A stretch of 64,000 nucleotides of DNA. It comes from a virus. Its lineage: Duplodnaviria; Caudoviricetes. The stretch spans positions 64,001 through 128,000 of IMG/VR virus record IMGVR_UViG_3300035686_000002; one strand, written 5' to 3'. The translations under genes were made by a program, and so were the position numbers. Below, piece after piece: positions 1,505 through 33,366 of this stretch; within the stretch, counting starts at the first letter, position 1; every line of letters begins with the position of its first letter. The notes below the pieces were generated by a model. The model had not been told where the DNA came from, did not search any database, and worked only from the letters and a program-made list of their open reading frames with translations.

Positions 1505-2557
1505 CTAATTATTTTTGTTAGCATTTTTCTGTGCTTTCATTTGTTTTGTAAAAGCTGCTTCATTCTCTTCTTCAATTACCATTGCTGGCATAGCTTCACC
1601 TCTTTTTGCATCTATTGCTTTTGCTACAATTGCCGCAGCTACTTGAAATTTGCCAGACACTATTTCATAAGTAATATTCATAGGGGTTCCAGTCCTACGC
1701 AATATAGCAGGTTCTATAAATCCTCCTAGTTCTAAAAAAGATTCAGCTGCTGCACGAAGATCGTTTGAATCAAATTCATCGTCAGGCATGGCAATAGATT
1801 TTATTAACACAGTTCGAGGAAGAAGTCTTGGACTATCGGTAAATTTTTTGCTTGCGTCTGGTTCCAGTGATTTCTCCATAGCAATCTGCTCTGCCAATTT
1901 CTGAGCAGAAATCTTGCCAGTTGTGCCAATTGTAGGTGCAGTTGTTTCTGTTACAGGTTTAGCTGTTGAACTTGTCGCAACCGTCGGTGTTTTAATTTTA
2001 GCTGCCACTTGTTTTGCTATTTCCTGTACTTCTGGTGACATTGGCTGCTTGCAAGGTTTCCCCATTGCCCGACACACCGCACCGCACGGAAATGTTTTAT
2101 CGGGAGTGCAAGTCAAAGTTTTTCCTGACTTGTTGACTTTTGTTTTGACGCCCACCTTAGCTTTTGTTGGCGCATCGGCACGCGAAAACCAACTGTCTAA
2201 TTTTTGCTCAATCACCTCTGCATCCGAAACCTCAAATGCTTCCCGCGCTGAATAAATTATTTTAAACCGATTGGCATTTTCTTGTTCTGCCAACAGCGAA
2301 TCTGCCTTATTTGCAGATTTAACGCCAACTGGCTTGTAATACACACTGTTATTGTTGACATTTAGAATATATTGAAAAGTTGTTCCGTCTGCAACGAATT
2401 CACCAACAATATTTCCGCTGGGCCTTTTTCCGTAAGTTTTAATGCGATCAATACCAGAAGTGTAATAAATATTTAATATTTTTGATAACAACTTAGACGT
2501 TTCAACGTTGTTGTCTAACCCAGATCCAGTTAAATTGCCAATTGTAGTACCTTGCAT
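1505..2557 (-). CDS. Divergent member of the shared-N-module family; Cys4 knuckle plus C-terminal ParB-like domain
   Basis: GNIVGEF...VYYKP resembles the family module. Contains CTPDKTFPCGAVCRAMGKPC. The C-terminus (GGFIEPAILRRTG...YEIVSG...RGEAMPAMVI) resembles cyanobacterial ParB/Srx-like domains. Confidence 0.7.
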   Translation of the reverse strand: MQGTTIGNLTGSGLDNNVETSKLLSKILNIYYTSGIDRIKTYGKRPSGNIVGEFVADGTTFQYILNVNNNSVYYKPVGVKSANKADSLLAEQENANRFKIIYSAREAFEVSDAEVIEQKLDSWFSRADAPTKAKVGVKTKVNKSGKTLTCTPDKTFPCGAVCRAMGKPCKQPMSPEVQEIAKQVAAKIKTPTVATSSTAKPVTETTAPTIGTTGKISAQKLAEQIAMEKSLEPDASKKFTDSPRLLPRTVLIKSIAMPDDEFDSNDLRAAAESFLELGGFIEPAILRRTGTPMNITYEIVSGKFQVAAAIVAKAIDAKRGEAMPAMVIEEENEAAFTKQMKAQKNANKNN

Positions 2558-2573
2558 TTTGTTGTTTCCTAAA

Positions 2574-2840
2574 TTAATAAATTTTATCTGGATCGTGTTT
2601 TGGTGGTGTGCCTTCGTCTGTAATTTCCCCTTCCCAAGTGTCCACAGCAGCTTGGGCTATTGTCATATCAGGCCACGGATTAGAGGAAGAATAAAGCATA
2701 AAGAATGGTTCGCCGATCGTTGCCGTTCTGATTTCGTTTTGTGTCCACTCATTTAGCATAGTCGTCAGGTCGGCATCGTCACTTGTCCATTCGCCGTTTT
2801 CAATATTGCATTTCGATCCGTGAATTTCTAAGGTAATCAT
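2574..2840 (-). CDS. Small acidic hypothetical protein, candidate immunity/partner of 2840..4753
   Basis: 88 aa, acidic. Its start overlaps the stop of the upstream peptidase-domain gene (TAATG). Confidence 0.55.
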   Translation of the reverse strand: MITLEIHGSKCNIENGEWTSDDADLTTMLNEWTQNEIRTATIGEPFFMLYSSSNPWPDMTIAQAAVDTWEGEITDEGTPPKHDPDKIY

Positions 2841-4753
2841 TATTTCCCTCTCAGCGTGTTGTAAATAAAAGCAAAATACTCTGGATCGGCTTTAGCGAAT
2901 CCAGCAGGATCTTTGTACATCATCTCCATTCCCATTGACAAAATCTCTGAATTTTCGTCACTGTTTGTTTTTTTGCCCATATAAGGTTTTAACCATTTAT
3001 CGGGCTTCGCTACTTCATTATCCCCGTAGTTTGAGTTGCCTGTCAAGTCGCTAAGTTTTTGCCATTTCTCCCCAGCAGTTCTATTCTCGAAAAACTTCTG
3101 CACTTTATTATGAATATTAGGATCTGATTCTTCTAGCCAGTGCGCTGCTTCGTGAACGACAACCTCTACAGGGGCTTTGTCCGCCATATAGATGCCACCT
3201 CTTCCGTAGAACGAGCGATCGGCTGCTTTCCCAAAGTTGGTATCAAGTGCTGCTACTTTTAAAGTTTTCCCGTCAACAGTATTAACTCCTACCATTTTCT
3301 TAAAAGCGATTATTCCTGCTACCAGTTTTGTTGATTGCTCTTGATTTAACGTTCCTGTCTTGGCTCGTGTTTTTGGATTTGTTAAGCCACCGTTGACTCC
3401 TTTCATTTTAGATGGCGGGTTTACATATAAAAATTCACGAGCAACATTTGCGGTGAAATTCTCATACTTTTTGCAAGCTTCTTCTACTTCCGTGTTCCAA
3501 TTTTCCGAATAAAATTTTCTAGCTGCTGCTTTCCCTTTTGTGGCTGTAATTTCATTAGCTTTCTTTGTCACTTCTTGCTTTTTGTCAATTGCTAATTTAT
3601 AGTCTTTCCCTATAACTTCAGATAATTTTTGCAAGTATGCAGCAACCTCCGCACCTGACTTCATTTTGCTCGCTGCTTGTCGTGCAAGTATTTTTGCTTC
3701 AGCAAAATTGTCGGAGTCAAATGCTTTTTTTAGTCCAGCGACTAGGGGGTCAATCGGTGGCTGCTTCTTAACCCCAGCCTTAAACATTCCCGCCCGTTCT
3801 TTCTCTAGCGTGTTTGCCTTGGCTTTCAAATCGTTAGCAGTGCCGTATCGCGACCACTTGTTATTGCCTTTTGAGTCTAAGTATTTGGCTAAAGCTCGGA
3901 TTTTGTCAATCCGTCCTTGGCTAACGCTCTCAATTGAGCCACCCGCTCGGTTAGTCTGTTGACCCGCACTGTTGATCCAACAGGTGTGTTGCAAGGGAAT
4001 ACAGATACTGCCGCACCCGTAGCTAATACTTGTGCAACGTGGCTTTTTCCCGCCTTTTACTGCGTCGTGCTTGACTTCTAATGAGGTATAACCCAGAGAG
4101 AACACGTCAAACAACCTTGAGTCTGCTACGCTGTCAGTGTTGTTTGTGGCGATCGCAGGCTTGTATCCAATTCGGTTGTCTTGGACAGAATAACTAAAAA
4201 TTCGACGATTCCAAGCGTCTTGGAATTTACCAGAAATATCGCCATTGTCCGCAATATCAAACGAAATTAAGTTAATGTTTGAACCGTAAGCATCGTCGCT
4301 TTTGATTAGTTCTTCCAATTGTTCGACAAAATTTGTCAACTCATCAGCGTCTTTTTTTACCTTAGAGTGCAAACCTATGTCATCTTGTAATTGGGCGATC
4401 GAATATTGACTAGCAGCCCCAAACAACTGCCGGGGAACGTGCTTAAGAAACGTCTCAACAGCCTCGTCAAAATTTTGAGCGCCCAAAACATACTTATACT
4501 CATCAATCGCCCCCGTCGGAGTAACTTGCACAACCTTAAATACTGTCGGCGCATCGCTGACTACATACACGTCTAAAGCTTTACCGTCCAAGCCAGCTCC
4601 CCACGAGCCACGAATGCAGCCGTAGTCGCAAGACATCGGTGGAGCAAATGAGAATCGAGCCTCCCCGCTTTTGGTAGTAATGTTTAGCGGGATTCCATTC
4701 CAGGATCGAACTTCCTTGGCGGGTTCGCTGTTGGCGTCTGTGCGATATCTCAT
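2840..4753 (-). CDS. Polyvalent phage protein: InPase-like domain + shared family module + Cys4 + zincin-like metallopeptidase
   Basis: N-terminal DYGCIRG...DGKALDVYV...DEYKYVLG (inorganic-pyrophosphatase-like). Internal SDDAYGS...GKFQDAWNRR...YKPA. CTSISYGCGSICIPLQHTC. C-terminal HEAAHWLE...PYMGK...EILSMGME. Confidence 0.8.
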   Translation of the reverse strand: MRYRTDANSEPAKEVRSWNGIPLNITTKSGEARFSFAPPMSCDYGCIRGSWGAGLDGKALDVYVVSDAPTVFKVVQVTPTGAIDEYKYVLGAQNFDEAVETFLKHVPRQLFGAASQYSIAQLQDDIGLHSKVKKDADELTNFVEQLEELIKSDDAYGSNINLISFDIADNGDISGKFQDAWNRRIFSYSVQDNRIGYKPAIATNNTDSVADSRLFDVFSLGYTSLEVKHDAVKGGKKPRCTSISYGCGSICIPLQHTCWINSAGQQTNRAGGSIESVSQGRIDKIRALAKYLDSKGNNKWSRYGTANDLKAKANTLEKERAGMFKAGVKKQPPIDPLVAGLKKAFDSDNFAEAKILARQAASKMKSGAEVAAYLQKLSEVIGKDYKLAIDKKQEVTKKANEITATKGKAAARKFYSENWNTEVEEACKKYENFTANVAREFLYVNPPSKMKGVNGGLTNPKTRAKTGTLNQEQSTKLVAGIIAFKKMVGVNTVDGKTLKVAALDTNFGKAADRSFYGRGGIYMADKAPVEVVVHEAAHWLEESDPNIHNKVQKFFENRTAGEKWQKLSDLTGNSNYGDNEVAKPDKWLKPYMGKKTNSDENSEILSMGMEMMYKDPAGFAKADPEYFAFIYNTLRGK

Positions 4754-6216
4754 TATTCTTCCTCCTCAAAAGCGGCTGCATCATCGCTACCCATTTCTAC
4801 TGGTGGAGCATTCTGTTCTTCTTCTAACTTTTTGCGCTTGTCAACATTTAAATTAACATTATATTGCGGAGTAGTCCCCCCAAATACTGACTTGGCAACT
4901 TCTTCTGGTAATAGCACTTGAGAGCTAATATAACCATTTAATGTTCCACCATAGATAGAAAATAACTCTGCTTTTTCTTTTTCAGTCATCGGGTGCGTGT
5001 CAACAAAATTCCACCGAAAACCGTTGGGTATATTTCCTTTTGTTGGTGAGTCTTTAGCAAGCCAGCAGAGCTTGTGAAATCGGTTTAATTGTTTTTTCAT
5101 ATGGCGGTCTTGATATTGGCGAACAGTTTTGTTCATATCTGTTTGCTCGCTGCCACCACTAACACCTAGTTTGCCTGCTGGCGACACTCCCAAAAGGTAC
5201 GTGCGCGGTAGATTGGATGCGGCTACACATTCGTCAATCGCTTTTTCTACCGCTCCAAAAATACTTTCAAAATTTAGTGAACTTTCTTGTATGTCTTCTT
5301 TGTCTTTGTCAATTACTCTGTATTTAAAGCTTGATTCCATTATTGCGCCTTCTGCAACACGCTTTCTTAAAATTTCTTCATTTCCCGCTAGAATTGTTTT
5401 CCACAAATCTGCAATCTTCCAAGTCTTTTTAATAATTTCTGGTAATAAAGAAGCAACTAAGCTAATAGCCATATCGTATCGAGCAAGTGGTTGAGCAAAT
5501 GTTTCTAATACCGAATTTCCCCAACCTTGATTGCGCTGTCTAGAACTGTCTAACAAACGGGCGGCACCGCCGAACCGTAAAATTCGCGATCGATGAATTA
5601 GTCCCGTATTACTATGCCCAATACTTTCTCCCAAGTTTAAACGATAGTGAGTTGGTCGGCTCATGTTCCATGCAATACTATCTTGCATTAAAAATTTTTT
5701 ATTTTTTTCTAACGTAGGATGGCGTTCTGGAGTTACAGCCCTACGGTTAAAAACTCGTAAAAAGTTAATAGTTTTAATATTTTTTTCATCTACTTCTTCC
5801 CAGGGTTCTCGTCCGTCGTCAATATCAATATAAATAGCTGAACCCCCTGTCAGTCGTTCTTCCCGCATAGCTTCGTTAAAAATGTCAGCCGTTGATATTT
5901 CATCGCCAACATCATCGACCAGCCTATCTTGGTATTCAATAAAATGACCAATTAAATTTGGCGCGTTGTTTTCGCCTGTAATTTGATACTCAACCCACTC
6001 ACGAGTACATTCGTCAGGTAGTATGTCAATTAAGTTTTGCACCATCCAGTGATATTCGTAAAGATGATCTATTTCTTGAGCTGTTAATTTACGACGAGAT
6101 TGAATTTGTGTAAATTGACTTCGATCTCGTGCTGTTCCTTGTCCAGTATAAACGTTGGCAAACAGTCCGGGCAAAAATGAATCCTGTCTACTAAACAAAT
6201 CATCTAAATCACTCAT
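4753..6216 (-). CDS. Phage portal protein (DUF1073 type)
   Basis: IDILPDECTREW, ERLTGGSAIYI, IHRSRILRF, GWGNSVL, AASNLPRTYLLGVSPAG, and W-F-x-x-x-P-x-TEKEKAE are typical DUF1073 portal features. Confidence 0.88.
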   Translation of the reverse strand: MSDLDDLFSRQDSFLPGLFANVYTGQGTARDRSQFTQIQSRRKLTAQEIDHLYEYHWMVQNLIDILPDECTREWVEYQITGENNAPNLIGHFIEYQDRLVDDVGDEISTADIFNEAMREERLTGGSAIYIDIDDGREPWEEVDEKNIKTINFLRVFNRRAVTPERHPTLEKNKKFLMQDSIAWNMSRPTHYRLNLGESIGHSNTGLIHRSRILRFGGAARLLDSSRQRNQGWGNSVLETFAQPLARYDMAISLVASLLPEIIKKTWKIADLWKTILAGNEEILRKRVAEGAIMESSFKYRVIDKDKEDIQESSLNFESIFGAVEKAIDECVAASNLPRTYLLGVSPAGKLGVSGGSEQTDMNKTVRQYQDRHMKKQLNRFHKLCWLAKDSPTKGNIPNGFRWNFVDTHPMTEKEKAELFSIYGGTLNGYISSQVLLPEEVAKSVFGGTTPQYNVNLNVDKRKKLEEEQNAPPVEMGSDDAAAFEEEE

Positions 6217-6932
6217 GGTTTATTTTCTAAGTTTTTAGGAATATTTGCAAACATTCTATTCAAATCAAAATCTTCTGTATCAAGTCCTAATGCTTTGTTA
6301 ATAACATCCGGGTTTTGCTCTTTATATTTCTGGTAACTTTCTGCCAGATATTGCTTACGCCTGTCTTCTGGTGACTCTTGTGAAGCATTGTAGGCTTGCA
6401 CCAATAAATTAATTGTACCAAGATCGAATCGATCAAACAAAGCTAGTGTATCTTGAACGCTTGTTGCCGCAGTCAGTTGTCCAATTGTATCAATCACAAA
6501 ATCACCACAACTCTTAATTGGCGGATTCCAGTTGTCAATCTCGTCTCCCTCTTGTGGCTCAAAAGGTACTTTTGTTGAGGTATCAAATTCTGATTGATGG
6601 AGGGCAAGCAACTCGCTGGGGAACGCTTGAGCTTGCGCTTCTTTTCCTTCAATACGGCACAAAAACATAGACTGCACTTCTTCTGGTTCCATTAGCGATA
6701 CATCCCAACCGTAAACAGTCGGCTGCGGTGGTGTATCAAGCCTAGGGAACAAATCAGCAATCTGCTGTAATAGTGTCCAGTGATTTGTAAGTAGCAAAGC
6801 AGTGTCACCACCTAAGTTTTCCCACACTTTTGTCAACTCTTCAGTTAGAAGCTGAAAAGAAGATAATCTGGAAAAAGGAACCGGGGCAATCACAATTACT
6901 TGAAGCCCCAGCCAAAAAAGTAAACTTTTCAT
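6213..6932 (-). CDS. Hypothetical protein, possible tail assembly chaperone
   Basis: Coupled downstream of the putative tail tube gene. No recognisable motif. Confidence 0.4.
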   Translation of the reverse strand: MKSLLFWLGLQVIVIAPVPFSRLSSFQLLTEELTKVWENLGGDTALLLTNHWTLLQQIADLFPRLDTPPQPTVYGWDVSLMEPEEVQSMFLCRIEGKEAQAQAFPSELLALHQSEFDTSTKVPFEPQEGDEIDNWNPPIKSCGDFVIDTIGQLTAATSVQDTLALFDRFDLGTINLLVQAYNASQESPEDRRKQYLAESYQKYKEQNPDVINKALGLDTEDFDLNRMFANIPKNLENKP

Positions 6933-6941
6933 TGCTTAGAT

Positions 6942-7763
6942 TTAACAAACTCTTTGCTGTGGCAACCATTCCCATTCATAAGGTCTGCACCGCCCAGCGG
7001 TGACGATTGTGTAAGCAATATCTACTTTTTGGTCGTCGCCTAAAGGAATATCGCCTTCAGCCGGATTTAAGAGTGCCTCAAAGATTTTTAAGTGCCACCG
7101 TTTTTGTGTTCGGGTTTGTCCGCAAATATTGATTTCGCATCGTTCCAAAGGAGCTGCTTCATTAAGGCGAACAATTCCGGCTAAATTATTCGGAATCATC
7201 ATTGATACGTGTTTGCCTACCAAATCAGCACTAAATCCCAGTCCCATGTTTGCACCGATCGCTACAGTTCGAGTTCCCGTTGGCGGTGTACTTGCTGAAT
7301 AAGTACCCGTCATTGTCAGTTCTACGGGAACACCATCTTCTGTAAGCGTTCCGCCTTTAGCACCTGTTGGAGATGCAATTACACCAAAACCTTCTTGACC
7401 TGCAATCGCTGGTGGTAAAAGTTGCTGGGTTATTAGCCGAGGGGCCCAGTGAATGAATGTAGGTGTTTGAGTCGCGATTGTCTCTGGCTCTAAACCTTCT
7501 CGCATACCTACCGTCAGTGGCGTAAACAGCGGGAAAGAAAATCGAATAGACGGTCTGTTTTCATTGGTAAACTGATCGGCAAGAACTTTTTCACCTTGAG
7601 CAGAAGAAGTCATTACTTCTGTCAAACTAACGCCTTTGTTGAGAACTGGATCGTTTGGAGTTGCTACGCAAACTGGAGAACCTAATACACCCAAATTGTT
7701 GTAAAAACGAATTGTGATGTCGGTTATTGAACCTTTGCGACCTTGAAACGGTGAATTTGACAT
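6942..7763 (-). CDS. Putative major tail (tube) protein
   Basis: 273 aa, beta-rich and G/P/T-rich, located in the virion operon after neck-like genes. Confidence 0.5.
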   Translation of the reverse strand: MSNSPFQGRKGSITDITIRFYNNLGVLGSPVCVATPNDPVLNKGVSLTEVMTSSAQGEKVLADQFTNENRPSIRFSFPLFTPLTVGMREGLEPETIATQTPTFIHWAPRLITQQLLPPAIAGQEGFGVIASPTGAKGGTLTEDGVPVELTMTGTYSASTPPTGTRTVAIGANMGLGFSADLVGKHVSMMIPNNLAGIVRLNEAAPLERCEINICGQTRTQKRWHLKIFEALLNPAEGDIPLGDDQKVDIAYTIVTAGRCRPYEWEWLPQQRVC

Positions 7764-7799
7764 AACTTTAAATTAGACAGTAAAATGAATTTGAACGAA

Positions 7800-8162
7800 T
7801 TAGCTAGTTTGACTAGCTTTTGGTTTTGGAACTGGCTTTGCTGTAACTGCCAAAACAACTTCGTTCTCGTCGGTTGGTGGAACGAACTGTTTTAGATCGA
7901 TCAAAATGTGATTTAACAAACTAGCTTCGCCTAATTCTCCGTTGACGTATTGAGCTGCTTTGACTTCAAATCGCTGTTTACCTTCTTCCACTCCGAGTCG
8001 AACACATTCAATTGTTGCAACAACAGTTTGTGTGCCGTCGAGCATTGGCATAATGAGCGGAAATATAAAACTGGTATCTGTTTCTGTTGGTTGTCCGGGG
8101 ACTATTTCGGCAGTAACGTCAACCATAGGATGTTCTTTTTCTACTTGAAGATTGATGATCAT
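7800..8162 (-). CDS. Hypothetical virion-operon protein
   Basis: Coupled ORF in the structural operon. Confidence 0.55.
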   Translation of the reverse strand: MIINLQVEKEHPMVDVTAEIVPGQPTETDTSFIFPLIMPMLDGTQTVVATIECVRLGVEEGKQRFEVKAAQYVNGELGEASLLNHILIDLKQFVPPTDENEVVLAVTAKPVPKPKASQTS

Positions 8163-8641
8163 GGGCTGAAAGCTCCTGTTACTGCGGTTAACTCTGCGAA
8201 TTCGCAGTGGAATTTGACATTAAACTGAAATACAAAAGACAGTATCCAGTCTGATTTGTTTTGGTCATTCAGTAACACGTTGCCTGTGCATTTAATTTCT
8301 TCAATATCGGATGACAGACAAGCGTAATGCGCTTGAAGATTTAACAAAATATAGGTTAATTTGTCTTCAGCTTGACTGCGAGGAACAGTTGTATAAGAAT
8401 GGGAGCTATCAAGTCGATATTCTACTTGTATAGGGATTTTTGTTTGAAGTAAATAACTACTTGTTTCTCCAGTTCCGACTATTTTCACTATTGAATACTC
8501 GGAAGCGTTTCCGTCAAGACCTGCTGAGGGTGGCGCTCGCAAGTCTTTGACTGATTCTGGCGAGTTTAGACCCCATCTATCTATTCGGAGTTGTTGACTC
8601 AACCATTCTTTTAATTTGGTTCTAAGTTCACTTGGTAGCAT
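8159..8641 (-). CDS. Putative tail terminator/completion protein
   Basis: 160 aa with N-terminal helix and C-terminal beta strands (WILSFVFQFNV), upstream of the tail tube candidate. Confidence 0.4.
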   Translation of the reverse strand: MLPSELRTKLKEWLSQQLRIDRWGLNSPESVKDLRAPPSAGLDGNASEYSIVKIVGTGETSSYLLQTKIPIQVEYRLDSSHSYTTVPRSQAEDKLTYILLNLQAHYACLSSDIEEIKCTGNVLLNDQNKSDWILSFVFQFNVKFHCEFAELTAVTGAFSP

Positions 8642-9117
8642 TAGATTAATCCTGGTAGAGTTCCAAAAATATTTGTTTTAAATAAATCGCCCTTGACAAT
8701 TAAATCTCCTTGCCAAGTTTTGTTAACGCTCAATCCTGTTAATTGAATTTCTAAAAATAGTTTTTTTGCAGGCTGAAACCAGGTCGCGTCCGATCGGGGC
8801 AAGTCCAAAAGTTGTCCAAGATTTTGGTCAAGGATTAGCGTTTCAGTATCTTGTGGGGCTAAAACTAAGGACAAATCTGCTGTCGTTAACGTCGTGTTTA
8901 GCGTGACAGCAAAGTTTTTGGAACCAATTGCTTGTACTGATTGAGCCGGATTCAACGAATCAAGCGCCAACAACCGCACAACGGGCAGAGTTTGCGCCGA
9001 GAAACTGGTTAACGGAATCCGGGCGGAAAACTTCAACGTGTCGCCCTGAATCATTACCAAGTTTCGCAGTTCGCTTGGCTTGTCGTTTACTGAGAATTTG
9101 ACTAAATCTAGACTCAT
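8641..9117 (-). CDS. Structural protein with BppU-N-like beta domain
   Basis: MIQGDTLKF...LVLAPQDT...FLEIQL...WQGDLIV pattern, similar to the C-half of 10476..11219. Confidence 0.5.
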   Translation of the reverse strand: MSLDLVKFSVNDKPSELRNLVMIQGDTLKFSARIPLTSFSAQTLPVVRLLALDSLNPAQSVQAIGSKNFAVTLNTTLTTADLSLVLAPQDTETLILDQNLGQLLDLPRSDATWFQPAKKLFLEIQLTGLSVNKTWQGDLIVKGDLFKTNIFGTLPGLI

Positions 9118-9120
9118 TAT

Positions 9121-10479
9121 CTACCTCCTTTTTTGTCTAGTTAATTCAAAATCGGCAGGAACAGTAAACAATCCTAGTGCGTTTTCTTCTAGTATCTCTA
9201 GCTCTGTCAAGCTTTCGCTTTCGATGTTTACTGATGCATCTTTCCTACCCTTTGCAGATTCCTCTTGATTTTTTATAAACTTTTTGGCATTTTCTTCGGT
9301 TAACTCCATACCTAACATATCTCCAGATGTAAAGCCAACTTTTTGATAAAACGGAATTGCATCACTTAGCGGATACAATTCAATACGCGGTTTTCTTTTC
9401 TCGGCAATTGCATTTTTAATTAAAGATTCTATTGCGCTTGCTCCCGCTCCTTTCTTCTTGTTTAGATGAGCTTCTAAACAGTTCCACGGAGCAGAAGCCA
9501 ATAAATTTACAAAGTATCCATCAGAAGTAATCTCGTAACTATATGCAGCTTGCAACTTTCCGTCTTTGTCTACAACTCCCCCAAAAATAATATCTTTTCT
9601 TTCTTTAGTCTTAAGTATAGCGCCAACAATACTTATTGTTGCATCTAACCTCTCTTCTGTTGTCCTTTGAATCAACCTACTATCCGGTATAGATTCATCG
9701 TATAGACTGAGTTGAGCTTGTTCTAATTCTTGTTGGATATCAATCCATTGTTGTAATTTTTCCCTGGTTTCTTTATCTCCTACGAATTTAAAATTCTTAT
9801 TACTTAACAAAAATTTTTCAGGTGCAAGGGTTGGTTCAGTAGATTGTTTTTCTTTGTTTGTTATTTGACGCTGAACCAGTCTGTCTCGCCCCTCTCCTTG
9901 ATATTTATTTCTTGCGCTTGTAATTCGAGCGCCTACAGCATTAACTGCTGCAAACTTCTTCTTGTCACCACTAGCCTCAAGTTTGATTGACAAATCTATC
10001 AACTTACTTAATCGTTCTTTCCCAATTGCTTTACCTTGAAACTCGCCTCGCGTCTTTTTGCCCGAACTTAAAATTCTGCAAGTTTTAGTTAAACCAATAC
10101 AACTAAACCCGCAGCTATAACCTTCAGTTCCACACTTAGGCTTTTTGACACGCTTTCCTATTTGACTTCTATCAAGTCGAATATTCGCAAATAGCGACGT
10201 ATACCCTTCACTAAAAGAATCAAGTTGTGCAGGCAATCCATTTACAGAAAAAGAATCAAGTCTTGCTGCTGGCTTGTAGCTAATCCCGTCAATGTCAATA
10301 ACAAATTCATAAACTCGATTGTTCCATGAATCCCTAAATTTACCATTGATAACCTCATCTTTAACCGAGTAAGTTAAAATTTGAATGTTGCTTCCGTAAG
10401 CCTCGTCACTCTCAAGAATTGATTCTAATTCAGCTAAAAACTCTTGTCTAACAGGTGATTCAGTAAGAGGTACACTCAT
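9121..10479 (-). CDS. Shared-N-module family protein with C-terminal GNAT acetyltransferase domain
   Basis: SDEAYGS...GKFRDSWNNR...YKPA and CGTEGYSCGFSCIGLTKTC. C-terminal LLASAPWN...KKGAGASAI...AIPFYQKVGF matches GNAT motifs A and B. Confidence 0.82.
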   Translation of the reverse strand: MSVPLTESPVRQEFLAELESILESDEAYGSNIQILTYSVKDEVINGKFRDSWNNRVYEFVIDIDGISYKPAARLDSFSVNGLPAQLDSFSEGYTSLFANIRLDRSQIGKRVKKPKCGTEGYSCGFSCIGLTKTCRILSSGKKTRGEFQGKAIGKERLSKLIDLSIKLEASGDKKKFAAVNAVGARITSARNKYQGEGRDRLVQRQITNKEKQSTEPTLAPEKFLLSNKNFKFVGDKETREKLQQWIDIQQELEQAQLSLYDESIPDSRLIQRTTEERLDATISIVGAILKTKERKDIIFGGVVDKDGKLQAAYSYEITSDGYFVNLLASAPWNCLEAHLNKKKGAGASAIESLIKNAIAEKRKPRIELYPLSDAIPFYQKVGFTSGDMLGMELTEENAKKFIKNQEESAKGRKDASVNIESESLTELEILEENALGLFTVPADFELTRQKRR

Positions 10480-11219
10480 GCCCTACCTCCTATCCCGCGA
10501 CAGATGTCATCAGACACAGAAAACCTCGACCGATTGACCGTGTAGTGTTCGCCGTTAACCGTGCCGTCGTCAAGCTGAATGTCGGCATACACGATTGCAG
10601 GTGTCATAAGGGCAGCAGTATCTTGCGGTAAAAGGCGAATTTGGTATGTGGCCGCCCGTGTTTTGCCGTTGTAGGTAACAATGTCCTCCACTCCCAAAAA
10701 CTTAACGCCACCGTTTTGCAAGGTTTTTCTAAATAGCGCTTTGCTGTCCAAGTGTGCAGGGTCAGTTTTTCCGGTAAAAGTTACATTGACCGAACCATTG
10801 GTTTCCGACGCTACCCGATCACCCACAATCCGCAAATTGAACGCATAAAAGTCTCCCCGCGTCAGTTGATTGCCGTCTAGCTGTTCCTCTTGTCCATTTT
10901 TGAGTAGGAATAATTCAGCGCTAGGGGGATAGACTATTTTGCCGAGCAACGACAGCAGCAAAAATTCATCCTGTCCAACTTTGCTCTCAACAGCGATCGC
11001 TCGACCAAATGACAGGGCTAAGTCGCAAGTGTCAGCGCTGACCTTTGCTGAGGCTGAAAGCGATCGACCAAATTGAAGATTTATTTCAACGCTGTCGTTG
11101 CTAACCCGTGACTGAGCTGCAACTGCACGTCCAAAAGTCCACTTTGGCTCGTCAGCTTCAACCGCATCATTACCAACTTTTGAGTAAGCTCCGACTGAAA
11201 TTCCCACCATTTTTATCAC
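10476..11219 (-). CDS. Structural protein: N-terminal FGR-x-x-A repeats plus BppU-N-like domain
   Basis: Three FGR(A/S)xxAxxxV repeats, then LTRGDFYAF...IRLLPQDTAAL...YADIQL. Confidence 0.5.
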   Translation of the reverse strand: MIKMVGISVGAYSKVGNDAVEADEPKWTFGRAVAAQSRVSNDSVEINLQFGRSLSASAKVSADTCDLALSFGRAIAVESKVGQDEFLLLSLLGKIVYPPSAELFLLKNGQEEQLDGNQLTRGDFYAFNLRIVGDRVASETNGSVNVTFTGKTDPAHLDSKALFRKTLQNGGVKFLGVEDIVTYNGKTRAATYQIRLLPQDTAALMTPAIVYADIQLDDGTVNGEHYTVNRSRFSVSDDICRGIGGRA

Positions 11220-13418: not shown

Positions 13419-13848
13419 CTGGCTTCCTCCTTACCGTAAGAATATAGACAAGGGGGTTGTTCTCGTCAATTGTCACAAACTCTACCTCAATGCCACCAAA
13501 TACTTTTCCATTGCGCATCTCTGCGTTAACCCAGTAACTTGTCCCGGTTGCCTGAAGCCAATCGTCAAGATCGAGATTGCGCGGGATGCCAGAAAGAGTA
13601 AACTCATCTTCCCGCGCCTCTGTCCCGTCGTTTGCCATTGTGGGCGAGAAAGTTGATGGCGGTGCTTTCTTCCAGATTAGATTGCTTACAGATCGCAGCT
13701 CTTGGCGAGAAACGCCGTCTGCCGTAAACCGTCGCACGAGTAAAAGACTGACAACATTGGTCAAGCCAAAACCATCGGCGGTCTTGGCAAAACTACAATC
13801 CCTAGCTTTTTGAGCAATCTTGGCAAAACTCATGCGATTATCCCGCAA
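13399..13848 (-). CDS. Putative head-closure/neck protein
   Basis: Position directly after the DUF4054 connector, 149 aa. Confidence 0.45.
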   Translation of the reverse strand: MRDNRMSFAKIAQKARDCSFAKTADGFGLTNVVSLLLVRRFTADGVSRQELRSVSNLIWKKAPPSTFSPTMANDGTEAREDEFTLSGIPRNLDLDDWLQATGTSYWVNAEMRNGKVFGGIEVEFVTIDENNPLVYILTVRRKPDERRFN

Positions 13849-15468: not shown

Positions 15469-15491
15469 TTTAGTTGTTTTAAATAATGGGG

Positions 15492-16292: not shown

Positions 16293-16296
16293 TAAT

Positions 16297-22000: not shown

Positions 22001-25000
22001 AATCAATAAGGAAATTGATGCAAACCAGGGAAACAAAGAGCGACTAGAAGAGTTAAATGCAAAACGGGCAGGACTAGAGAAAGATTTAACCGAAGTGCAG
22101 AAGAAACAGCTACAACAGCGATTGTCGGACTTACAACAGGATGCTGACGAACGAGTAGCCGTAGTCAAAGCCGCAAATGCTGTAGGTGACATTAACAACC
22201 AAGAAGCTGCAAAACGAACTGCAATGATCGAGTCCAACAGTTCAAAGTCTCAACTGCAAATCATCCGAAATAGAATTGCTGAGGTGCAAGCTGCTGATAA
22301 AGCACGGGGTAAAGTTAGCATTGAATTATTGGAAGAATTACGAAAACAGGAAGCAGACACTCAGGTCAAGATAACTGAAATAGCAAAAAAGGAAATGGAA
22401 TCACGCTTAGCTGACCTGAAAGAGGATGTAGCTGAGCGCACAGCAGTTATCAAAGCATCACAGGCAACAGGCGCAATAGATAACCAGGCAGCAGCAATTC
22501 AAACGGCAGAATTTGAACGTACTGGCGCAGCCCAACGATTAGAGATTGTCCGATCGCGGATTGAGCAAGTTGCAGCCGAAGGCAAAAAGTCAGGCAAACT
22601 CAACATTGAACTGATGGAATCTCTGAGAAAACAGGAAGCAGAGATCGAGGTTGAGACGACTGAGATTGCCAAGAAAGAAATGGATGCCCGCTTATCAGAC
22701 TTGCAACAGGACGTTGAAGAAAGAGTTTCAGTAATTCAATCAACTAATGCGTTGGGAACCCAAGACAACCAAGAAACGGCAATTGCCACGTCTCAAATTC
22801 AACAAAAAAGTGCCAACGATCAATTAAAAATAGTTAGAGAAAGAATTAATGCGGTTATCACGGAGGGACAAAAATCAGGAAAACTAAACATAGAGCTTTT
22901 AGAAGAACTACGAAAAAGAGAAGCTGATATTCAGGTTAAAATTACAGAAACTCAAAAACAGGAGTTACAAAAACGGCTAGCAGATTTGCAACAAGACGCT
23001 GAAGAGCGAACGGCAGTTGTAACAGCAGAGAATGCAACAGGAATTTTAGACAATCAAAAATCTGCTATAAAAACGTCGCAAATTCAACAAAACAGTTTAA
23101 ATGCTCAACTCAGTTTAATTCGTCAGCGAATAGCAACTGTTAGTCCTGCCAATAAAGAGTTGTTGGAGGAACTACTAAAACAGGAAGCAGATATCCAAAT
23201 CAAAATTACAGAAGTTCAAAAACAAGAATTTCAGAAACGTTTAAGTGACTTGCAGCAAGACTCTCAAGAACGTATTGCTGTTGTGGAAGCAGCGACAGCG
23301 ATGGGAAGAAAAGACAATCAGGAATCAGCGATAGAAATACAAAATATTCAGCGACAGGGTGTTGTCGCTCAATTAAGGTTAGTGCGAGAACGTCTTTCTG
23401 CCACTAGCTCGCTAAACAAAGAGTTACGAGAAGAGCTAAAAGCGCAAGAAGCCAAGTTACAGACAGAACTAACAGAGATTCAAGAACAAGGCTTTCAAAA
23501 ACGTCTGTCTGATTTACAGCAGGACGGGGAAGAACGGCTGGCTATTATTACTGCTAACGGTATTAGGGGGCTAGCCGACAACCAAGAAACGGCGTTAAAG
23601 TCAGCCGCTATTCAGGAAGAATCAGCACAAAAACAGTTGGCACTAATCCAAGAACGATTGACTAGGGTTAGCGAATCATCGACTGAACTCCGAGAAAAAC
23701 TGCTAAAACAGGAAGCTGATACCCAAGCTAAAATCGCTGAAATTCGCAAACAGGCTTTTGACAAACGACTGGCGGATATTGAGCAAGACGGACAAGAACA
23801 ACAGACAATTTTAGAAGGACAGTTGGCACAGGGTCAGACAACAGAAGCCGAGTATGCCCAAAATCGTTATGACCAATCGCTTCAATCTTTAGATAATCAG
23901 TTAGTGCTTGTTCGGGAACGCCGATCGCAAATATCGGCAACCGACATTGAGGGACAAGAGGCGCTGGCAACTCAAGAAGCCTCTCTGCAAAAACGCCGAC
24001 AAGATGCGCTTTCCCAGTTTTTAGAAACTCAATTGAGTTTACTAGATCGGGAAAATAAAAAGGCAACTGAACTGTTGGAACAGTCAGAACTCGATCGCAA
24101 GTTGATTGTTAAACAGGCGGCGCTTTCGGGAAGTGCTGACAAAGATGCTGCCGCAACCGCTGAAATCAAAGCAACACAACGCCGAATCCAACAGGAAATC
24201 GCATTAGAAGAACAGAAAAATGCAACGCTGCGATCGCTCCCGGCATTTTCCGATCCAGCAAAAGAAGCCGAGCGACAATCTAGAATTCGGGCATCGGTTA
24301 AACGGACAACTGAACTCAGACTTCAATTACTAGATGAAGAAAAAAGGGCTTTTGATTTGCTGGTTGACCGCCAAATAAAAGCTATCCAGAATCAGGCTCG
24401 GGAACAAGAGCTAGCTTCTGATGTGCAAGTGCGGGCGATCGAGCAACAGAGTAAGCAGTATGATTTGCTAAGTCGATCGCTTGAAAACCAAAACAAACTC
24501 CTGCAATCCCGTGCCAGCTTAGCAAATGCTTTAAACGGGTACATTCAGGGCGAATATAAAATCTTGCAGGACAGCGCGGGTTCCGAAAGTGAACGCAAGC
24601 GACTGATCAAGGAAGCCGCAGATGCCCAACTTGTAGCAATGCAGCAGCAGCAAACCGTCGCTCAAAAAAACCTCGACATCGAAATCAAGCAAGCTGAAAT
24701 TGCTCAAAAACGTGCAGAATTTGAAGCAGAAATTGCAGAGATAAAAGCCCGAGCCGGGTCTGCCAAAGCCGATGCCGAAGTTCTTAAAGCTGAAGCAACA
24801 TTGCAAAAAGTACAGCGCGACCCCAACGCTAGCAATGCTGATGTTGAAGCCGCCCGATTGGATGTTGCTGCCGCCCGTGCTGGAGCCGAAGCTGCTGTTG
24901 CCGAAATTGCTGGGGCGATCGCGAACAAAGAAATGGTCGGGCGAAATGCAGAAGTTCTGAAGGCACAGAACGACCTGAAACGGGAAACACAATCGATTGA

Positions 25001-25592
25001 ACAAGTTACTCAAGGACGAGCAGCACAGGCTCAGGCGATCGAGGCAATCGTAGACGAAAACGAGAAAAAACTGAGGCAGCGCCAACTAGCCGGACGATTG
25101 ACACCGGAAGAATCAGAACGGCTGGCGCGGATTCAACGAGAAAACCAGCAGCGCGAAGCTACTAGGCGGCAGAATGAAATCGAACGGGACACACTGCGGG
25201 GAGTCGTTACGCCTAATGGGGTGCGACGGGGAATTCAAGCTGCTGGTGCGAGATCGAGTTCGCTGTTGCAGGCAATAGAGCAAACAGCGGCAACACCGCC
25301 GAAAGTACCGGAATTAAAAAACCTGGTGGCTCAAATGAACGCGCAGCGACAACAGATTTCAGCTATCAAGCCGGAGGTTAACCCGCTGATCCGATTACAA
25401 GAAGAAAGCACAAAATACCAGAAAGAGATACTTGGAGTTCTCAAACAACTCAACGGAAAACCGACACCCGCGCCGACAACTCCTGTAACTAATAATTTCA
25501 ACACCAACGCCCAAGTCGGTTTGTCCGAATCTCAAATGCTGGGAGTTTTTGGTCAGGTAAGCCAACAGGTGTCGCGGATGGTGGGGCGCTAG
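19059..25592 (+). CDS. Tape measure protein
   Basis: 2177 aa. N-terminus INVIFSITDLASSAL, hydrophobic A/G-rich segment, long coiled coil with at least 8 RLxDxxQD repeats. Confidence 0.9.
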   Translation: MANGINVIFSITDLASSALANVRSEMSRVASGITQASTALFFWSEGFNQIKAASSQFYNAFIGQNEKMRQQILATQSSLAAVQDVYINGVKSVDPTETIQAFEAPIRKSLNQIAIESLDLVGVTSGQLTDLLQIALTNATKITNQSKDFADPIKAAERLTLSFAGAFGAMQIPLFQARQEINSILSGTIDMNSRLAKGLSITNEQVRAWGSQGVLVDKLVSKLQPFVAGNALAARSVSGITSNIQEIFEITTRLAGESITGLFVDGLDVIYQYMKNIQPQIQATLNGVTAFISNSVKQIVEIISPFLPTLAVFRDAILSIGGSIGEIIGGSVQTLLTVLATVAPIIAPIFDLLVSIIKVVAELLSDPVIQQMVQMALIITAIIGPLSTIATLVATISGFFASGGGLVGFFTLLSTVAPGLVASLGALGSALASIAGFGGAAGAIATSGSMMTVLGGAITSVAVALGPLALAIAAVAAAAKLMQSAKVDDARQAIEAVGERSDVTASGANNTTLQLRQLRDREIIQGELTDKQKADKEKLTNQARNYATQLEAEITAAKEINTAGDESLENAKAALIASNEQTLKGLGKFTSGLSTSAKPLTELGGTFTQLSAKVAAFEAQIKAANSDPEFQTATKGITELITKQVQLGQISAEQGQKRLQTILNDSRVELAGREAAQKAIDQIREIATKKELERSQQTQSEIEKMQNEGRVGEVKAEQMLTEQKLKEISIRADSQKEAHSERMRQIQTEMNTALGGIDKEIADKQATLDKLKVAKAPEVQIVQAQRDLDSSKSRRADKQSEFVVIQVEENRKNAIEIAKMDAERSKLEKQQRDIRKREALKDFDERQKINDSAREQGLKDNQQAAQESIQIAQDRAKLELAQVKNSTAKLEAEAKKQGKTVKQYDKEAWEALQVQQAEALQKLATARKDGFEKRLSDIKQDAQEATALVDAAQAKNDIDNQAAATQTAAIATKSINTQIALINKEIDANQGNKERLEELNAKRAGLEKDLTEVQKKQLQQRLSDLQQDADERVAVVKAANAVGDINNQEAAKRTAMIESNSSKSQLQIIRNRIAEVQAADKARGKVSIELLEELRKQEADTQVKITEIAKKEMESRLADLKEDVAERTAVIKASQATGAIDNQAAAIQTAEFERTGAAQRLEIVRSRIEQVAAEGKKSGKLNIELMESLRKQEAEIEVETTEIAKKEMDARLSDLQQDVEERVSVIQSTNALGTQDNQETAIATSQIQQKSANDQLKIVRERINAVITEGQKSGKLNIELLEELRKREADIQVKITETQKQELQKRLADLQQDAEERTAVVTAENATGILDNQKSAIKTSQIQQNSLNAQLSLIRQRIATVSPANKELLEELLKQEADIQIKITEVQKQEFQKRLSDLQQDSQERIAVVEAATAMGRKDNQESAIEIQNIQRQGVVAQLRLVRERLSATSSLNKELREELKAQEAKLQTELTEIQEQGFQKRLSDLQQDGEERLAIITANGIRGLADNQETALKSAAIQEESAQKQLALIQERLTRVSESSTELREKLLKQEADTQAKIAEIRKQAFDKRLADIEQDGQEQQTILEGQLAQGQTTEAEYAQNRYDQSLQSLDNQLVLVRERRSQISATDIEGQEALATQEASLQKRRQDALSQFLETQLSLLDRENKKATELLEQSELDRKLIVKQAALSGSADKDAAATAEIKATQRRIQQEIALEEQKNATLRSLPAFSDPAKEAERQSRIRASVKRTTELRLQLLDEEKRAFDLLVDRQIKAIQNQAREQELASDVQVRAIEQQSKQYDLLSRSLENQNKLLQSRASLANALNGYIQGEYKILQDSAGSESERKRLIKEAADAQLVAMQQQQTVAQKNLDIEIKQAEIAQKRAEFEAEIAEIKARAGSAKADAEVLKAEATLQKVQRDPNASNADVEAARLDVAAARAGAEAAVAEIAGAIANKEMVGRNAEVLKAQNDLKRETQSIEQVTQGRAAQAQAIEAIVDENEKKLRQRQLAGRLTPEESERLARIQRENQQREATRRQNEIERDTLRGVVTPNGVRRGIQAAGARSSSLLQAIEQTAATPPKVPELKNLVAQMNAQRQQISAIKPEVNPLIRLQEESTKYQKEILGVLKQLNGKPTPAPTTPVTNNFNTNAQVGLSESQMLGVFGQVSQQVSRMVGR

Positions 25593-31038: not shown

Positions 31039-31072
31039 CTCAAAACCTGATTGTCACACAAATGTTGAAACG

Positions 31073-31480: not shown

Positions 31481-31510
31481 TTTATATATTGGTTTAATAC
31501 GGGATTAATT

Positions 31511-31557
31511 GAATCTCTCAACAGTCTGAGAGGAAACTTCCAGACTGTTGAGAAATT
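31511..31557. terminator. Inverted repeat/terminator
   Basis: TCTCAACAGTCTG...CAGACTGTTGAGA. Confidence 0.6.
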
Positions 31558-31559
31558 GA

Positions 31560-32021
31560 CTACCTACTGTACAATTCGTCAATATCGTCGCGATTAAATT
31601 TTAAGCCACGCTCAATTTCGTCCTGAGTCCATTTTAAAACGTGAGGGTTGACAGTGCCGATTGTCATCAGTTCGTAAATCCAAACATTGACATCTGCCTG
31701 AAACTCAGGATTACTCATTGCATAGCTCATTGCTAGCGCTGGGTGTATCCACATTTTCTGTCCACGTCCAGGAATAAAATCGATCAAGGGCGTTTGATTT
31801 TGTGTACGGGAATCCCCGTAGTCAACTGGAAGCCTTAAGTTCTCAGCAAGCCGAGCGATGAGTCTGGTTGCAAATTTTGTCCTACGCCAATCTGAAAATG
31901 TTTGATTTAGGCAGGCTGTCATGTCTGTGGCACAAAAATATCCGTCTTTACCCCGGATTTCAATTTTTCGCCCGTTGTACTCTGGAAATTGGTCAAACCA
32001 CGATATCATTAATTTAGACAT
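31560..32021 (-). CDS. KilA-N domain DNA-binding protein
   Basis: YNGRKIEIRGKDGYFCATDM...FSDWRR...WIHPALAMSYA...PEFQADV. Confidence 0.85.
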   Translation of the reverse strand: MSKLMISWFDQFPEYNGRKIEIRGKDGYFCATDMTACLNQTFSDWRRTKFATRLIARLAENLRLPVDYGDSRTQNQTPLIDFIPGRGQKMWIHPALAMSYAMSNPEFQADVNVWIYELMTIGTVNPHVLKWTQDEIERGLKFNRDDIDELYSR

Positions 32022-32169
32022 TGGCTCTCCGTCTTAGAGTCGAGTGTTTAGTTAGGGTGATCGCGCCAAACGATCTTCCTAACGCTATTTTATCAAAACG
32101 CAAAAATATAATCTATAAGTTTTACACAAGATCATAAAACAGGGAGATAACTGGCTCAATAGTCTAAAT

Positions 32170-33366
32170 ATGAATGTTCAAACACAGCAACAATTTATCT
32201 TTCAATTAACGCAACTTATCAAAAGCGAAGAAGCCTATGGCTCTGGCGTTGAATTACTCACGTATAAAATTGAAAACAATAACGATATTGAGGGAAAGTT
32301 TAGAGATAGCTGGAATAGTCGAATATTCAGCTTCTTAATCAATCGCGATCGACTTGGCTACAAACCTGCAATCAATCTTGACAGTTCTCACGGCGCAGAT
32401 TCAGTACAGCTAGCACGACACTTTGATACATTTGTTGTGGGGTATTTGAAAGGTTTCCGAATAGACGCGAAAAAGACTGGTGCAAAACGCACAGAAAAGT
32501 CTAGATGTACTCACATTAGTTATAACTGTGGAACCGCGTGTATACCACTGTTGAATAATTGCTGGATTGATGGCACTGAGAAAAGAGTTAAGGCGGCTGG
32601 CGATCCGACAAAAAACATTATTCAAGAAAGAATCGACAAAATTAGAAAGTTAGCCGATTTATTAAAATCACAACCAGAGAATCGAGCTTGGGCAAAAAAT
32701 AGAACACCAGAAAAGTTAGAGGCAAAAGCACAGTATTTGGAAGAAGTCAACAATAAAACAGTTGTTAAATCTAACGTGGGGGTGCATGAAATTATCCCTT
32801 ATTTGGCAAAACCAGGAAGAAGTAATTATAGAATTCCTGAAACTATTGAGACTATTAGTAAATTAACGGGAATGACAAATGATGAATCAATGGAATCTGC
32901 TAAAGCTGTTTGGTCTTTCACTGAGTCTAAATACGAAGATATCAGAAAATCTGAGTACGCCGGAATTGTTACTCCTCAAATTGCGGCAATTAATCGATAT
33001 CTTGATAAAATGCCGAAATTTCCAGGTAAAATCCTCAGAGGCAAAAAATTCAAGACCCAACAACTTCTTGATGATTTTATAGAAAAAATGCAAAATGGTT
33101 ATACCTACGATCTACCAGCTATGTCAAGTTTTAGTTCGTCGGAAAAATCACCAAAGTATTTTGCCACAAACGTCTCTTTTCAACCTTCTGTTATTTTTGA
33201 AATAGCGAACAACAAGTCTGGTGTCACGGTAAAAAACATTTCAAATTCCCAACACGAAGATGAAGTCTTAGTAAAAAAGGGAACTCAGTATAAACTTGCT
33301 GGATCGATTCGATACACGGAACATGAAGGGAAGAAAATAACAGTCATTCCGTTGGAAGAATATTAG
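32170..33366 (+). CDS. Shared-N-module family protein with C-terminal ADP-ribosyltransferase (R-S-E clade)
   Basis: SEEAYGS...GKFRDSWNSR...YKPA and CTHISYNCGTACIPLLNNC. ART motifs ILRG, SSFSSS, HEDEVL. Confidence 0.85.
   Translation: MNVQTQQQFIFQLTQLIKSEEAYGSGVELLTYKIENNNDIEGKFRDSWNSRIFSFLINRDRLGYKPAINLDSSHGADSVQLARHFDTFVVGYLKGFRIDAKKTGAKRTEKSRCTHISYNCGTACIPLLNNCWIDGTEKRVKAAGDPTKNIIQERIDKIRKLADLLKSQPENRAWAKNRTPEKLEAKAQYLEEVNNKTVVKSNVGVHEIIPYLAKPGRSNYRIPETIETISKLTGMTNDESMESAKAVWSFTESKYEDIRKSEYAGIVTPQIAAINRYLDKMPKFPGKILRGKKFKTQQLLDDFIEKMQNGYTYDLPAMSSFSSSEKSPKYFATNVSFQPSVIFEIANNKSGVTVKNISNSQHEDEVLVKKGTQYKLAGSIRYTEHEGKKITVIPLEEY

Follow-up and report, generated by a model that had tools for sequence, protein, structure and literature searches.

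A shared two-part leader in front of exchangeable enzymes most likely marks five proteins of a cyanobacterial phage for packing inside the capsid

The stretch of DNA analysed here, 64,000 nucleotides long and referred to below as the window, comprises bases 64001-128000 of the 151,712-bp linear IMG/VR virus record IMGVR_UViG_3300035686_000002, the completeness of which is estimated at 93%. It encodes five proteins (P0001 to P0005) that share one module and differ in the domains attached to it, and we propose that this module most likely marks the five proteins as packed inside the capsid. The named relatives of the studied proteins come from Microcoleus and Kamptonema assemblies, from PaV-LD (a phage of Planktothrix), from Nodularia phages and from the Aphanizomenon phage CL131; the phage is therefore regarded as a PaV-LD-like phage of filamentous cyanobacteria.

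An earlier note, made from the letters of the window, had described five open reading frames (ORFs) with a shared uncharacterised module followed by a four-Cys (Cys4) knuckle, and had interpreted the module as a tag for capsid loading or ejection. All five ORFs were present at the coordinates given there, with translations as described. The motifs that had been quoted for four of them, P0003, P0004, P0005 and P0002 (AYGS, GKF-D-WN-R, YKPA, FD-F-GY, a Lys-rich stretch and C-x6-CG-x2-C-x6-C), were all seen in the alignment, and in P0002 they lie internally. The module spans about 170 amino acids (aa), and its identity to that of P0003 is 81% in P0004 and 39% and 36% in the other two of the four. 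P0001 aligns at 23% over the module and retains YKP, R-A-D-A and the knuckle. That it is a diverged copy was corroborated by profiles from which this ORF and its close relatives had been excluded, since these recovered it at E = 4.7e-4 (four-sequence profile) and E = 1.7e-5 (85-sequence profile), both values being computed for a search space of 180 proteins. When all six frames of the 151.7-kb record were searched with a profile, exactly five module copies were returned, with no sixth copy below E = 0.1. Four of the five genes lie inside the head operon, as had been noticed before, and the exception is P0005.

Beyond the module, the C-termini of the five proteins are unrelated, the sole exception being a stretch of DNA shared by P0003 and P0004 (9835-10450 and 12786-13401), which is 81% identical over 616 gap-free bases and is followed by abrupt divergence. 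P0002 carries two effectors (InPase and HExxH), and each of the other four proteins has one recognisable C-terminal domain. The effector assignments of the earlier note fared unequally. Those of InPase and ADP-ribosyltransferase (ART) hold at Pfam cut-offs: the InPase of P0002 matched PF18823 at 56.1 bits (gathering cut-off 26.8), and the ART of P0005 matched PF03496 at 26.1 bits (cut-off 23.4), with the R, S-x-S and E-x-E motifs visible in the translation. The GNAT assignment stands by way of relatives; P0003 itself gave a GNAT match only at E = 0.21, PF13673 (GNAT) was found in five relatives (best 4.1e-11), and the profile of the P0003 family matched a solved GNAT in the PDB at E = 0.0012. 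The ParB and zincin assignments are weak. P0001 had no match to Pfam PF02195 (ParB N-terminal), its orthologue in the sister phage G001 reached 24.8 bits, below the cut-off of 26.3, and the P0001-family profile matched several ParB structures weakly (E = 0.015-0.05), while the zincin of P0002 is suggested by the HExxH motif and a weak M90 match (E = 0.039). The winged-helix assignment of P0004 is tentative; the tandem repeat is real, and winged-helix matches appeared only at E = 0.03-0.2.

Two of these domains also matched solved virion proteins. The best PDB profile match of the P0001 family, ranking ahead of the ParB structures, was aa 1337-1401 of the 1717-aa 'Tail protein' in PDB 9k3a chain B (E = 0.0027), and a ParB-like piece may thus reside inside this solved giant virion protein. 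The InPase of P0002 matched phrog_4660 and also aa 661-728 of a 765-aa solved portal (PDB 9b41 chain L, 'gp19 Portal', E = 3.7e-4), so that portals of another phage group carry the same small domain; the match to the C-terminus of that portal fits an intracapsid location. The InPase type of P0002 has been described in virion-associated polyvalent proteins (PMC5512222).

As far as the distribution can be drawn from protein searches, the module family is small and confined to PaV-LD-like phages of filamentous cyanobacteria. A HMMER search against 1.84 billion cluster representatives returned 201 proteins at E <= 0.001, and the source names of these were 'hypothetical protein', bar one JGI label reading 'predicted metal-dependent hydrolase'. 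The module adjoins the same head genes (DUF2213, cement, PF09950 and DUF4054) in PaV-LD, in CL131, in the sister phage G001 and in the distant metagenomic contig L009, a statement that covers every locus having enough flanking DNA. Moreover, the C-terminal diversity that had been noticed within the window was confirmed among relatives. Pfam tallies of 150 relatives comprised InPase (10), GNAT (5), ParB_N (5), ART (5-6) and DnaJ (3) together with several serine esterases and lipases, and protein and PI3/PI4-type kinases, PARP, pentapeptide repeats and LPD1 were seen once or twice each. On distant contigs, giant knuckle proteins with DnaJ or lipase domains are encoded just upstream of a tape-measure-like gene of about 2300 aa, and knuckle genes are arranged in the same way upstream of the tape-measure-like giant in CL131 and PaV-LD. 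In contigs L012 and L013 this forms a trio of a DnaJ knuckle protein (~1640-1850 aa), a lipase/esterase knuckle protein (~1790 aa) and the ~2300-aa giant, and in L012 a Peptidase_M23 gene comes after the trio.

The sister phage G001 (IMG/VR) offers a close comparison: its protease, cement, capsid and portal proteins share 83-88% identity with their counterparts in this phage. Of the five module genes in G001, four follow the portal, and the fifth, 51% identical to P0004, stands between the capsid gene and the portal gene. One of its genes (L014:11930-13498) combines InPase, the module and another C-terminus and is 70% identical to aa 1-332 of P0002, and a separate gene (L014:13645-15153) combines the module with HExxH and is 84% identical to aa 138-637 of P0002. 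The two halves of P0002 are thus found in two genes of G001, which suggests that P0002 arose by recombination, with the join inside the module that both genes have. In addition, an ART gene follows the portal in G001, the ParB_N-like gene is 67% identical to P0001, and no GNAT module gene was found in G001. This comparison is direct evidence that the module is a constant leader behind which enzymes are exchanged.

To describe the anatomy of the module, we used an AlphaFold model of the P0003 module, based on an alignment of 91 family sequences (mean predicted local distance difference test score, pLDDT, 79). In this model the N-domain (aa 9-97) is formed by a helix, four strands and a helix, with pLDDT 85-93 over aa 11-90. 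The linker drops below pLDDT 50 exactly at aa 103-107, overlapping R-L-D-R (aa 101-104), and the knuckle consists of three short strands carrying the four Cys (aa 120-137), with two long helices at aa 154-199. The N-domains of the five proteins are acidic (isoelectric point, pI, 4.2-6.1), and the 100 aa after the R-x-D Asp are basic in all five (pI 9.6-10.4, net charge +9 to +17). The module is accordingly modelled as an acidic alpha/beta domain, a disordered R-x-D linker and a Lys-rich Cys4 knuckle with basic helices, and the four-Cys knuckle is probably metal-binding. No match of the module to a known non-virion domain emerged: Pfam gave none, a PDB sequence profile search returned only matches at E >= 1, ESM Atlas yielded no usable match, and no fold match was convincing.

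The earlier view of the module as a single loading or ejection tag needs amendment. The constant leader is upheld, but the module is not one tag and falls into two separable parts split at R-x-D. One N-domain and one knuckle were found in 121 of the 150 cluster representatives, and the N-domain begins at most 40 residues from the N-terminus in 116 of the 138 representatives that have one. In 12 of the 150 it follows an InPase-sized segment (start at residue 100-200), as in P0002, and the giants, a minority, carry as many as five knuckle units and reach lengths of up to 2122 aa. The head cluster of PaV-LD encodes four full modules, one 104-aa protein with the N-domain only and three proteins that start with the knuckle alone.

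The motif at which the two parts meet recurs throughout the family and in other head proteins. [RKN]-x-D was present within 35 aa upstream of 157 of 163 knuckles in 155 proteins; among 156 tabulated sites, P3 was Arg in 140 and P1' was Ala in 82, P2 and P4 were mostly hydrophobic or aromatic, and P2'-P4' were mostly basic. In the 91-sequence alignment the motif Asp is at least 90% conserved, the consensus being R-x-D-A, then K/R-rich residues and the first Cys. The capsid protein and the protease likewise carry R-x-D among their first 25 residues in this phage, PaV-LD, CL131 and contig L009, as does the portal in the first three of these. The Arg and Asp of the motif are invariant in capsid and protease alignments with an overall identity of 24-26%; in the capsid protein they are R7 and D9, invariant among relatives that are 24% identical overall. 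The Y-R-A-D-S of the protease lies 13-15 residues from the N-terminus, as in relatives, given a start at Met10. The TTG start listed for this gene is probably wrong and the true start is probably Met10 (17718), because the relatives begin 3-5 residues ahead of their R-x-D motif.

The head maturation protease consists of a DUF2213 N-terminal half and a coiled-coil C-terminal half. In this phage it contains 10 matches to [RKN]-x-D-[ASG], 5 of them to the strict form R-x-D-[ASG], and the coiled-coil half has 7-13 motif matches in this phage, PaV-LD and CL131, as would be expected for a scaffold-like part that is chopped up in maturation. Across 180 ORFs, the density of strict R-x-D-[ASG] was 2.59 per 1000 aa in the head cluster versus 0.60 elsewhere. 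This form occurs in the first 30 aa of 7 of the 180 ORFs, and four of the seven are the portal, the capsid protein, the protease and P0002, which has R-T-D-A (aa 4-7) at its extreme N-terminus. The cement protein has no R-x-D motif. Based on this pattern, R-x-D is probably a prohead-protease cleavage site, with the DUF2213 head protease as the presumed enzyme. Prohead proteases act inside the procapsid; if R-x-D is such a site, the module proteins would therefore be in the procapsid at maturation. The prohead-protease site of phage T4 ends in Glu, and the candidate here is R-x-D.

Evidence on the content of virions is available for one relative; the labels 'virion structural' and 'minor head' in the PaV-LD record carry no weight here. 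In CsCl-purified particles of vB_AphaS-CL131, liquid chromatography with tandem mass spectrometry detected 23 virion proteins, and all three knuckle proteins of CL131 are among them, ORF_044 with 9, ORF_045 with 123 and ORF_048 with 175 peptide-spectrum matches (PSMs) (PMC6293099 Table S5). CL131 is a distant relative, and its module matches are weak (E = 1e-5 to 2e-3 with the first profile). ORF_044 has an R-x-D and knuckle unit at aa 13-52 and lacks the N-domain. ORF_045 has an N-domain-like start, R-Q-D-A, a C-x6-CG-x2-C-x6-C knuckle and a long Ala/Lys-rich basic repeat, and ORF_048 has repeated R-x-D-A and knuckle units, three of which score well against the profile. Fold matches to CL131 proteins were also obtained in BFVD. 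The abundance of ORF_045 suggested that it could be the major tail protein; this is unlikely given its module and low-complexity basic helical repeat.

We favour the explanation that one cassette underlies all five genes and that their products are internal head ('cargo') proteins, and give the whole of the proposed sequence a probability of about 55%. The acidic alpha/beta pro-domain of about 95 aa would bring the precursor into the assembling procapsid, where the DUF2213 prohead protease would cut after the Asp of R-x-D in the disordered linker. The mature protein would then start with the Lys-rich stretch, the four-Cys knuckle and the basic helices, and this new basic end would be suited to binding the packaged DNA or the exit channel; it is the knuckle, and not the whole module, that would stay on the mature protein. 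Finally, the variable C-terminal enzyme would enter the cyanobacterial cell with the genome and act early in infection. What we infer in this scheme is that the proteins of this phage are packaged and cleaved, that the knuckle binds metal, and that the enzymes are ejected and act on the host.

Several observations weigh against this explanation. The knuckle occurs without the N-domain in PaV-LD ORF080R, 081R and 085R and in CL131 ORF_044, and PaV-LD ORF083R has the N-domain without the knuckle; the N-domain therefore cannot be the sole loading signal. In addition, units of N-domain and knuckle are also found in the middle of giant proteins, and P0005 is encoded outside the head operon. Cleavage at R-x-D is read from the position of the motif only, and R-x-D may belong to the fold of the knuckle instead. 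A broader version of the explanation, which we put forward only tentatively, treats the leader as portable. The pro-domain would load any protein attached to it and mask the basic end, the cut at R-x-D would expose a knuckle 'DNA hitch' on every mature fragment, those of the giants included, and the cargo would exit on the genome. If true, arbitrary proteins could be packaged and injected by one general rule, which would also define the specificity of the DUF2213 protease family.

Alternatively, the module proteins could stay in the particle as inner-capsid lining, DNA-condensing or neck/tail-channel proteins, with no delivery to the host. The knuckle and basic helices would then organise the packaged DNA, and the attached domains would be structural or serve assembly only. 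Both parts of this explanation seem unlikely to us, even though the amounts of ORF_045 in CL131 virions agree with it: 123 PSMs for 453 aa versus 86 PSMs for the 310 aa of the capsid protein are nearly equal per length, and a module followed by an Ala/Lys-rich repeat is more reminiscent of a bulk structural or DNA-binding protein than of an enzyme. The strongly basic segment behind R-x-D in all five proteins and the position of the relatives' genes just upstream of the giant tape-measure-like gene point the same way. However, the substrates of ART, GNAT, InPase, kinase, lipase and DnaJ domains, such as NAD, acetyl-CoA, nucleotides or chaperone clients, are cytoplasmic, and it is not obvious what such enzymes would do in a sealed capsid. 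Moreover, rapid re-assortment of enzymes between near-identical phages is typical of conflict effectors and not of structural parts.

It is also conceivable, at still lower odds, that R-x-D is not cut and belongs to a metal-binding or disulfide mini-domain or to a docking motif, the proteins being incorporated uncut; the N-domain and knuckle would then make up one anchor to the portal, scaffold or capsid, which we consider equally doubtful. A single structural unit would fit the finding that the motif stands 3-30 aa ahead of nearly every knuckle, including the repeated knuckles of the giants. However, the motif is also present at the N-termini of the capsid protein and protease of four phages and of the portal of three, all of which have no knuckle, it is repeated through the C-terminal half of the protease, and it falls in the least ordered stretch of the AlphaFold model. 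Finally, it is very improbable that the proteins are not packaged at all and are late-expressed cytoplasmic enzymes with a regulatory, oligomerisation or DNA-binding module, and just as improbable that recombination and operon timing alone placed them in the head operon, for although the virion data come from CL131 and not from this phage, the gene for P0005 lies apart from the head genes and the fold of the module has no informative match, three knuckle proteins of CL131 are in purified virions, the family occurs only beside head genes in every locus with enough context, and the protease-type motif held in common argues for residence in the procapsid.

Among known systems, packing of the five proteins as internal head cargo would in its mechanism most resemble the internal proteins and Alt of T4 and the ejection proteins of SPN3US and phiKZ. 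In T4, an N-terminal pro-piece directs IPI-III and Alt, an ADP-ribosyltransferase included, into the prohead, the prohead protease removes it at a short motif, and injection of the DNA carries along the mature proteins, which are often basic (PMC9026906). The pro-pieces of T4 (capsid targeting sequences) are 10-19 residues long (PMC9026906), whereas the candidate here is a folded acidic domain of about 95 aa. Furthermore, T4 uses another protease family (here DUF2213), its internal proteins have no Cys4 knuckle, and there is no sequence similarity. The ejection (E) proteins of SPN3US and phiKZ are paralogous head proteins with N-terminal propeptides of 111-254 residues, which the prohead protease cuts at the three-residue motif A-X-E; cleavage at this motif extends to the portal, the capsid protein and the protease, and many of the products are thought to enter the host (PMC10052503). 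In contrast to the phage analysed here, SPN3US and phiKZ are jumbo myophages that infect proteobacteria, their protease, motif and sequences are different, and for them no Cys4 knuckle has been described, nor any swapping of enzymes behind a constant leader.

The design also recalls the MuF polymorphic toxins of temperate phages, which have a constant head-associated N-terminal domain, a variable C-terminal toxin or enzyme and a portal-adjacent gene (PMC5576092, PMC5512222) and a C-terminal repertoire that overlaps with ours (ART and others). They differ in having one tagged gene per genome, where several were found here, and no linked immunity genes were noticed here. The earlier note had recognised no MuF domain in the window, and indeed PF04233 had no match at E <= 0.1 in the whole 151.7-kb record, while control genomes matched. 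Since PF04233 is absent from the genome, the system is not a member of the MuF family, though it follows the same design. The suggested independence from MuF is valid for this genome but is not a rule, as CL131 and L009 have both MuF and knuckle proteins. In L009 the MuF gene is separate and in CL131 the domain lies inside a 1393-aa portal; PF04233 was not found in G001 or PaV-LD. We also considered the HExxH domain of P0002 as a hidden MuF domain and rejected this, as BLASTP against a MuF protein of L009 gave no meaningful alignment and PF04233 no match. The CL131 portal in question, ORF_012 (L007:8800-12981), carries its MuF domain at about aa 990-1100 (PF04233, 52.7 bits) together with nine [RKN]-x-D-[ASG] motifs, and may be a processed portal-MuF-effector polyprotein.

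The polyvalent proteins share with our set the polyvalent-type InPase, ART, ParB-like and metallopeptidase-like domains, and LPD1 in one relative. They have likewise been inferred to be packaged with DNA and delivered at invasion (PMC5512222), and relatives of our proteins include giant multi-unit proteins. Polyvalent proteins carry two to fifteen effector domains per polypeptide and are encoded with virion or late genes, whereas here there are five mostly single-effector genes with leaders of their own. In Iyer et al. 2017 the words 'knuckle', 'PaV-LD' and 'Planktothrix' have 0 occurrences, and the leader module is not mentioned (PMC5512222). The cargo proteins of crAss-like phages and the ejection proteins of podophages are similarly kept in the capsid until infection, when they leave through the tail (PMC10172136, PMC8954989); they have no known sequence or fold relation to the module proteins and are not known to have a common modular leader with swappable enzymes. 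We rate the module system as a new variant among capsid-targeted cargo systems.

The coordinates of the module genes and their neighbours are collected in the table below. The head region occupies bases 1-17,745 and consists of a long minus-strand head operon towards which the large terminase gene converges. A gene for a Gp80 fibre-like protein sits in the middle of the operon, flanked by two module genes. The 2177-aa giant encoded on the other strand has 33% identity over 471 aa to PaV-LD ORF088R (E = 7e-61) and a long Gly/Ala/Ile-rich hydrophobic stretch at about aa 370-480. PaV-LD is reportedly tail-less, so the giant may be either a tape measure or an ejection protein.

Table. Positions of the five module genes, their parts and neighbouring genes in the window.
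Feature	Position	Strand	Residues (aa)	Remark
Large terminase subunit (TerL)	39-1502	+		convergent with head operon, marks operon end
P0001	1505-2557	-		350 aa
P0001 N-domain, diverged	2258-2500	-	~20-100	
P0001 R-A-D-A site	2171-2182	-	126-129	
P0001 Cys4 knuckle	2051-2110	-	150-169	first spacing C-x7
P0001 C-terminus	1508-1990	-		weakly ParB-like
P0002	2840-4753	-		637 aa; directly downstream of portal gene
P0002 InPase	4385-4717	-	13-123	PF18823
P0002 K-K-D-A		-	133-136	InPase/N-domain junction
P0002 N-domain	4070-4345	-	137-228	
P0002 K-H-D linker site	4064-4072	-	228-230	
P0002 Cys4 knuckle	3980-4036	-	240-258	then basic helices
P0002 HExxH domain	2843-3331	-	~475-637	
Portal protein	4753-6216	-		phrog_146 at 2e-66
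Portal N-terminal motif S-R-Q-D-S	6178-6192	-	9-13	
P0003	9121-10479	-		452 aa
P0003 N-domain	10189-10455	-	9-97	
P0003 R-L-D linker site	10171-10179	-	101-103	
P0003 Cys4 knuckle	10078-10134	-	116-134	then basic helices
P0003 GNAT-like C-terminus	9247-9639	-	~281-411	
P0003 R-K-D		-	412-414	after GNAT; invariant in P0003 family
Gp80 fibre-like protein	11216-12049	-		277 aa; PF23140 (podophage GP4 fibre I protein gp80), E = 1.4e-11
P0004	12009-13418	-		469 aa
P0004 N-domain	13140-13406	-	5-93	
P0004 R-L-D site	13122-13130	-	97-99	
P0004 Cys4 knuckle	13029-13085	-	112-130	then two tandem ~110-aa repeats
DUF4054 connector	13830-14180	-		head operon member
Major capsid protein	14551-15468	-		PF09950
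Capsid protein N-terminal motif V-R-M-D-G	15439-15453	-	6-10	T-R-L-D-A (PaV-LD), I-R-M-D-A (CL131), V-R-L-D-D (L009)
Cement protein	15492-16292	-		PF22758; belongs to head gene set accompanying module in relatives
Head maturation protease	16297-17745	-		phrog_530 at 5e-64; PF09979 at 4e-32
Protease N-terminal motif Y-R-A-D-S				I-R-L-D-A (PaV-LD), I-R-F-D-S (CL131), L-R-F-D-T (L009)
Giant protein	19059-25592	+		2177 aa; homologous to PaV-LD ORF088R, annotated 'tape measure'
P0005	32170-33366	+		398 aa; outside head operon, in accessory block
P0005 N-domain	32182-32454	+	5-95	
P0005 R-I-D-A site	32458-32469	+	97-100	
P0005 Cys4 knuckle	32506-32562	+	113-131	
P0005 R-S-ExE ADP-ribosyltransferase	33028-33318	+	287-383	

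The phages of the bloom-forming Planktothrix, Microcoleus, Nodularia and Aphanizomenon are poorly annotated, and the module would explain a block of their 'hypothetical' virion genes. It would flag ADP-ribosyltransferase, acetyltransferase, pyrophosphatase, lipases, kinases and DnaJ as probable injected enzymes, which may decide early host takeover or the evasion of defence. DUF2213 head proteases are widespread in E217- and Pam3-type heads, and a defined leader with its cut site would give a testable rule for this protease family. In addition, the leader would be a means of loading cyanophage capsids with foreign proteins. Moreover, the 'constant head tag plus swappable effector' design of the MuF toxins would here have been reached by a second route, unrelated in sequence, which suggests that this design arises repeatedly.

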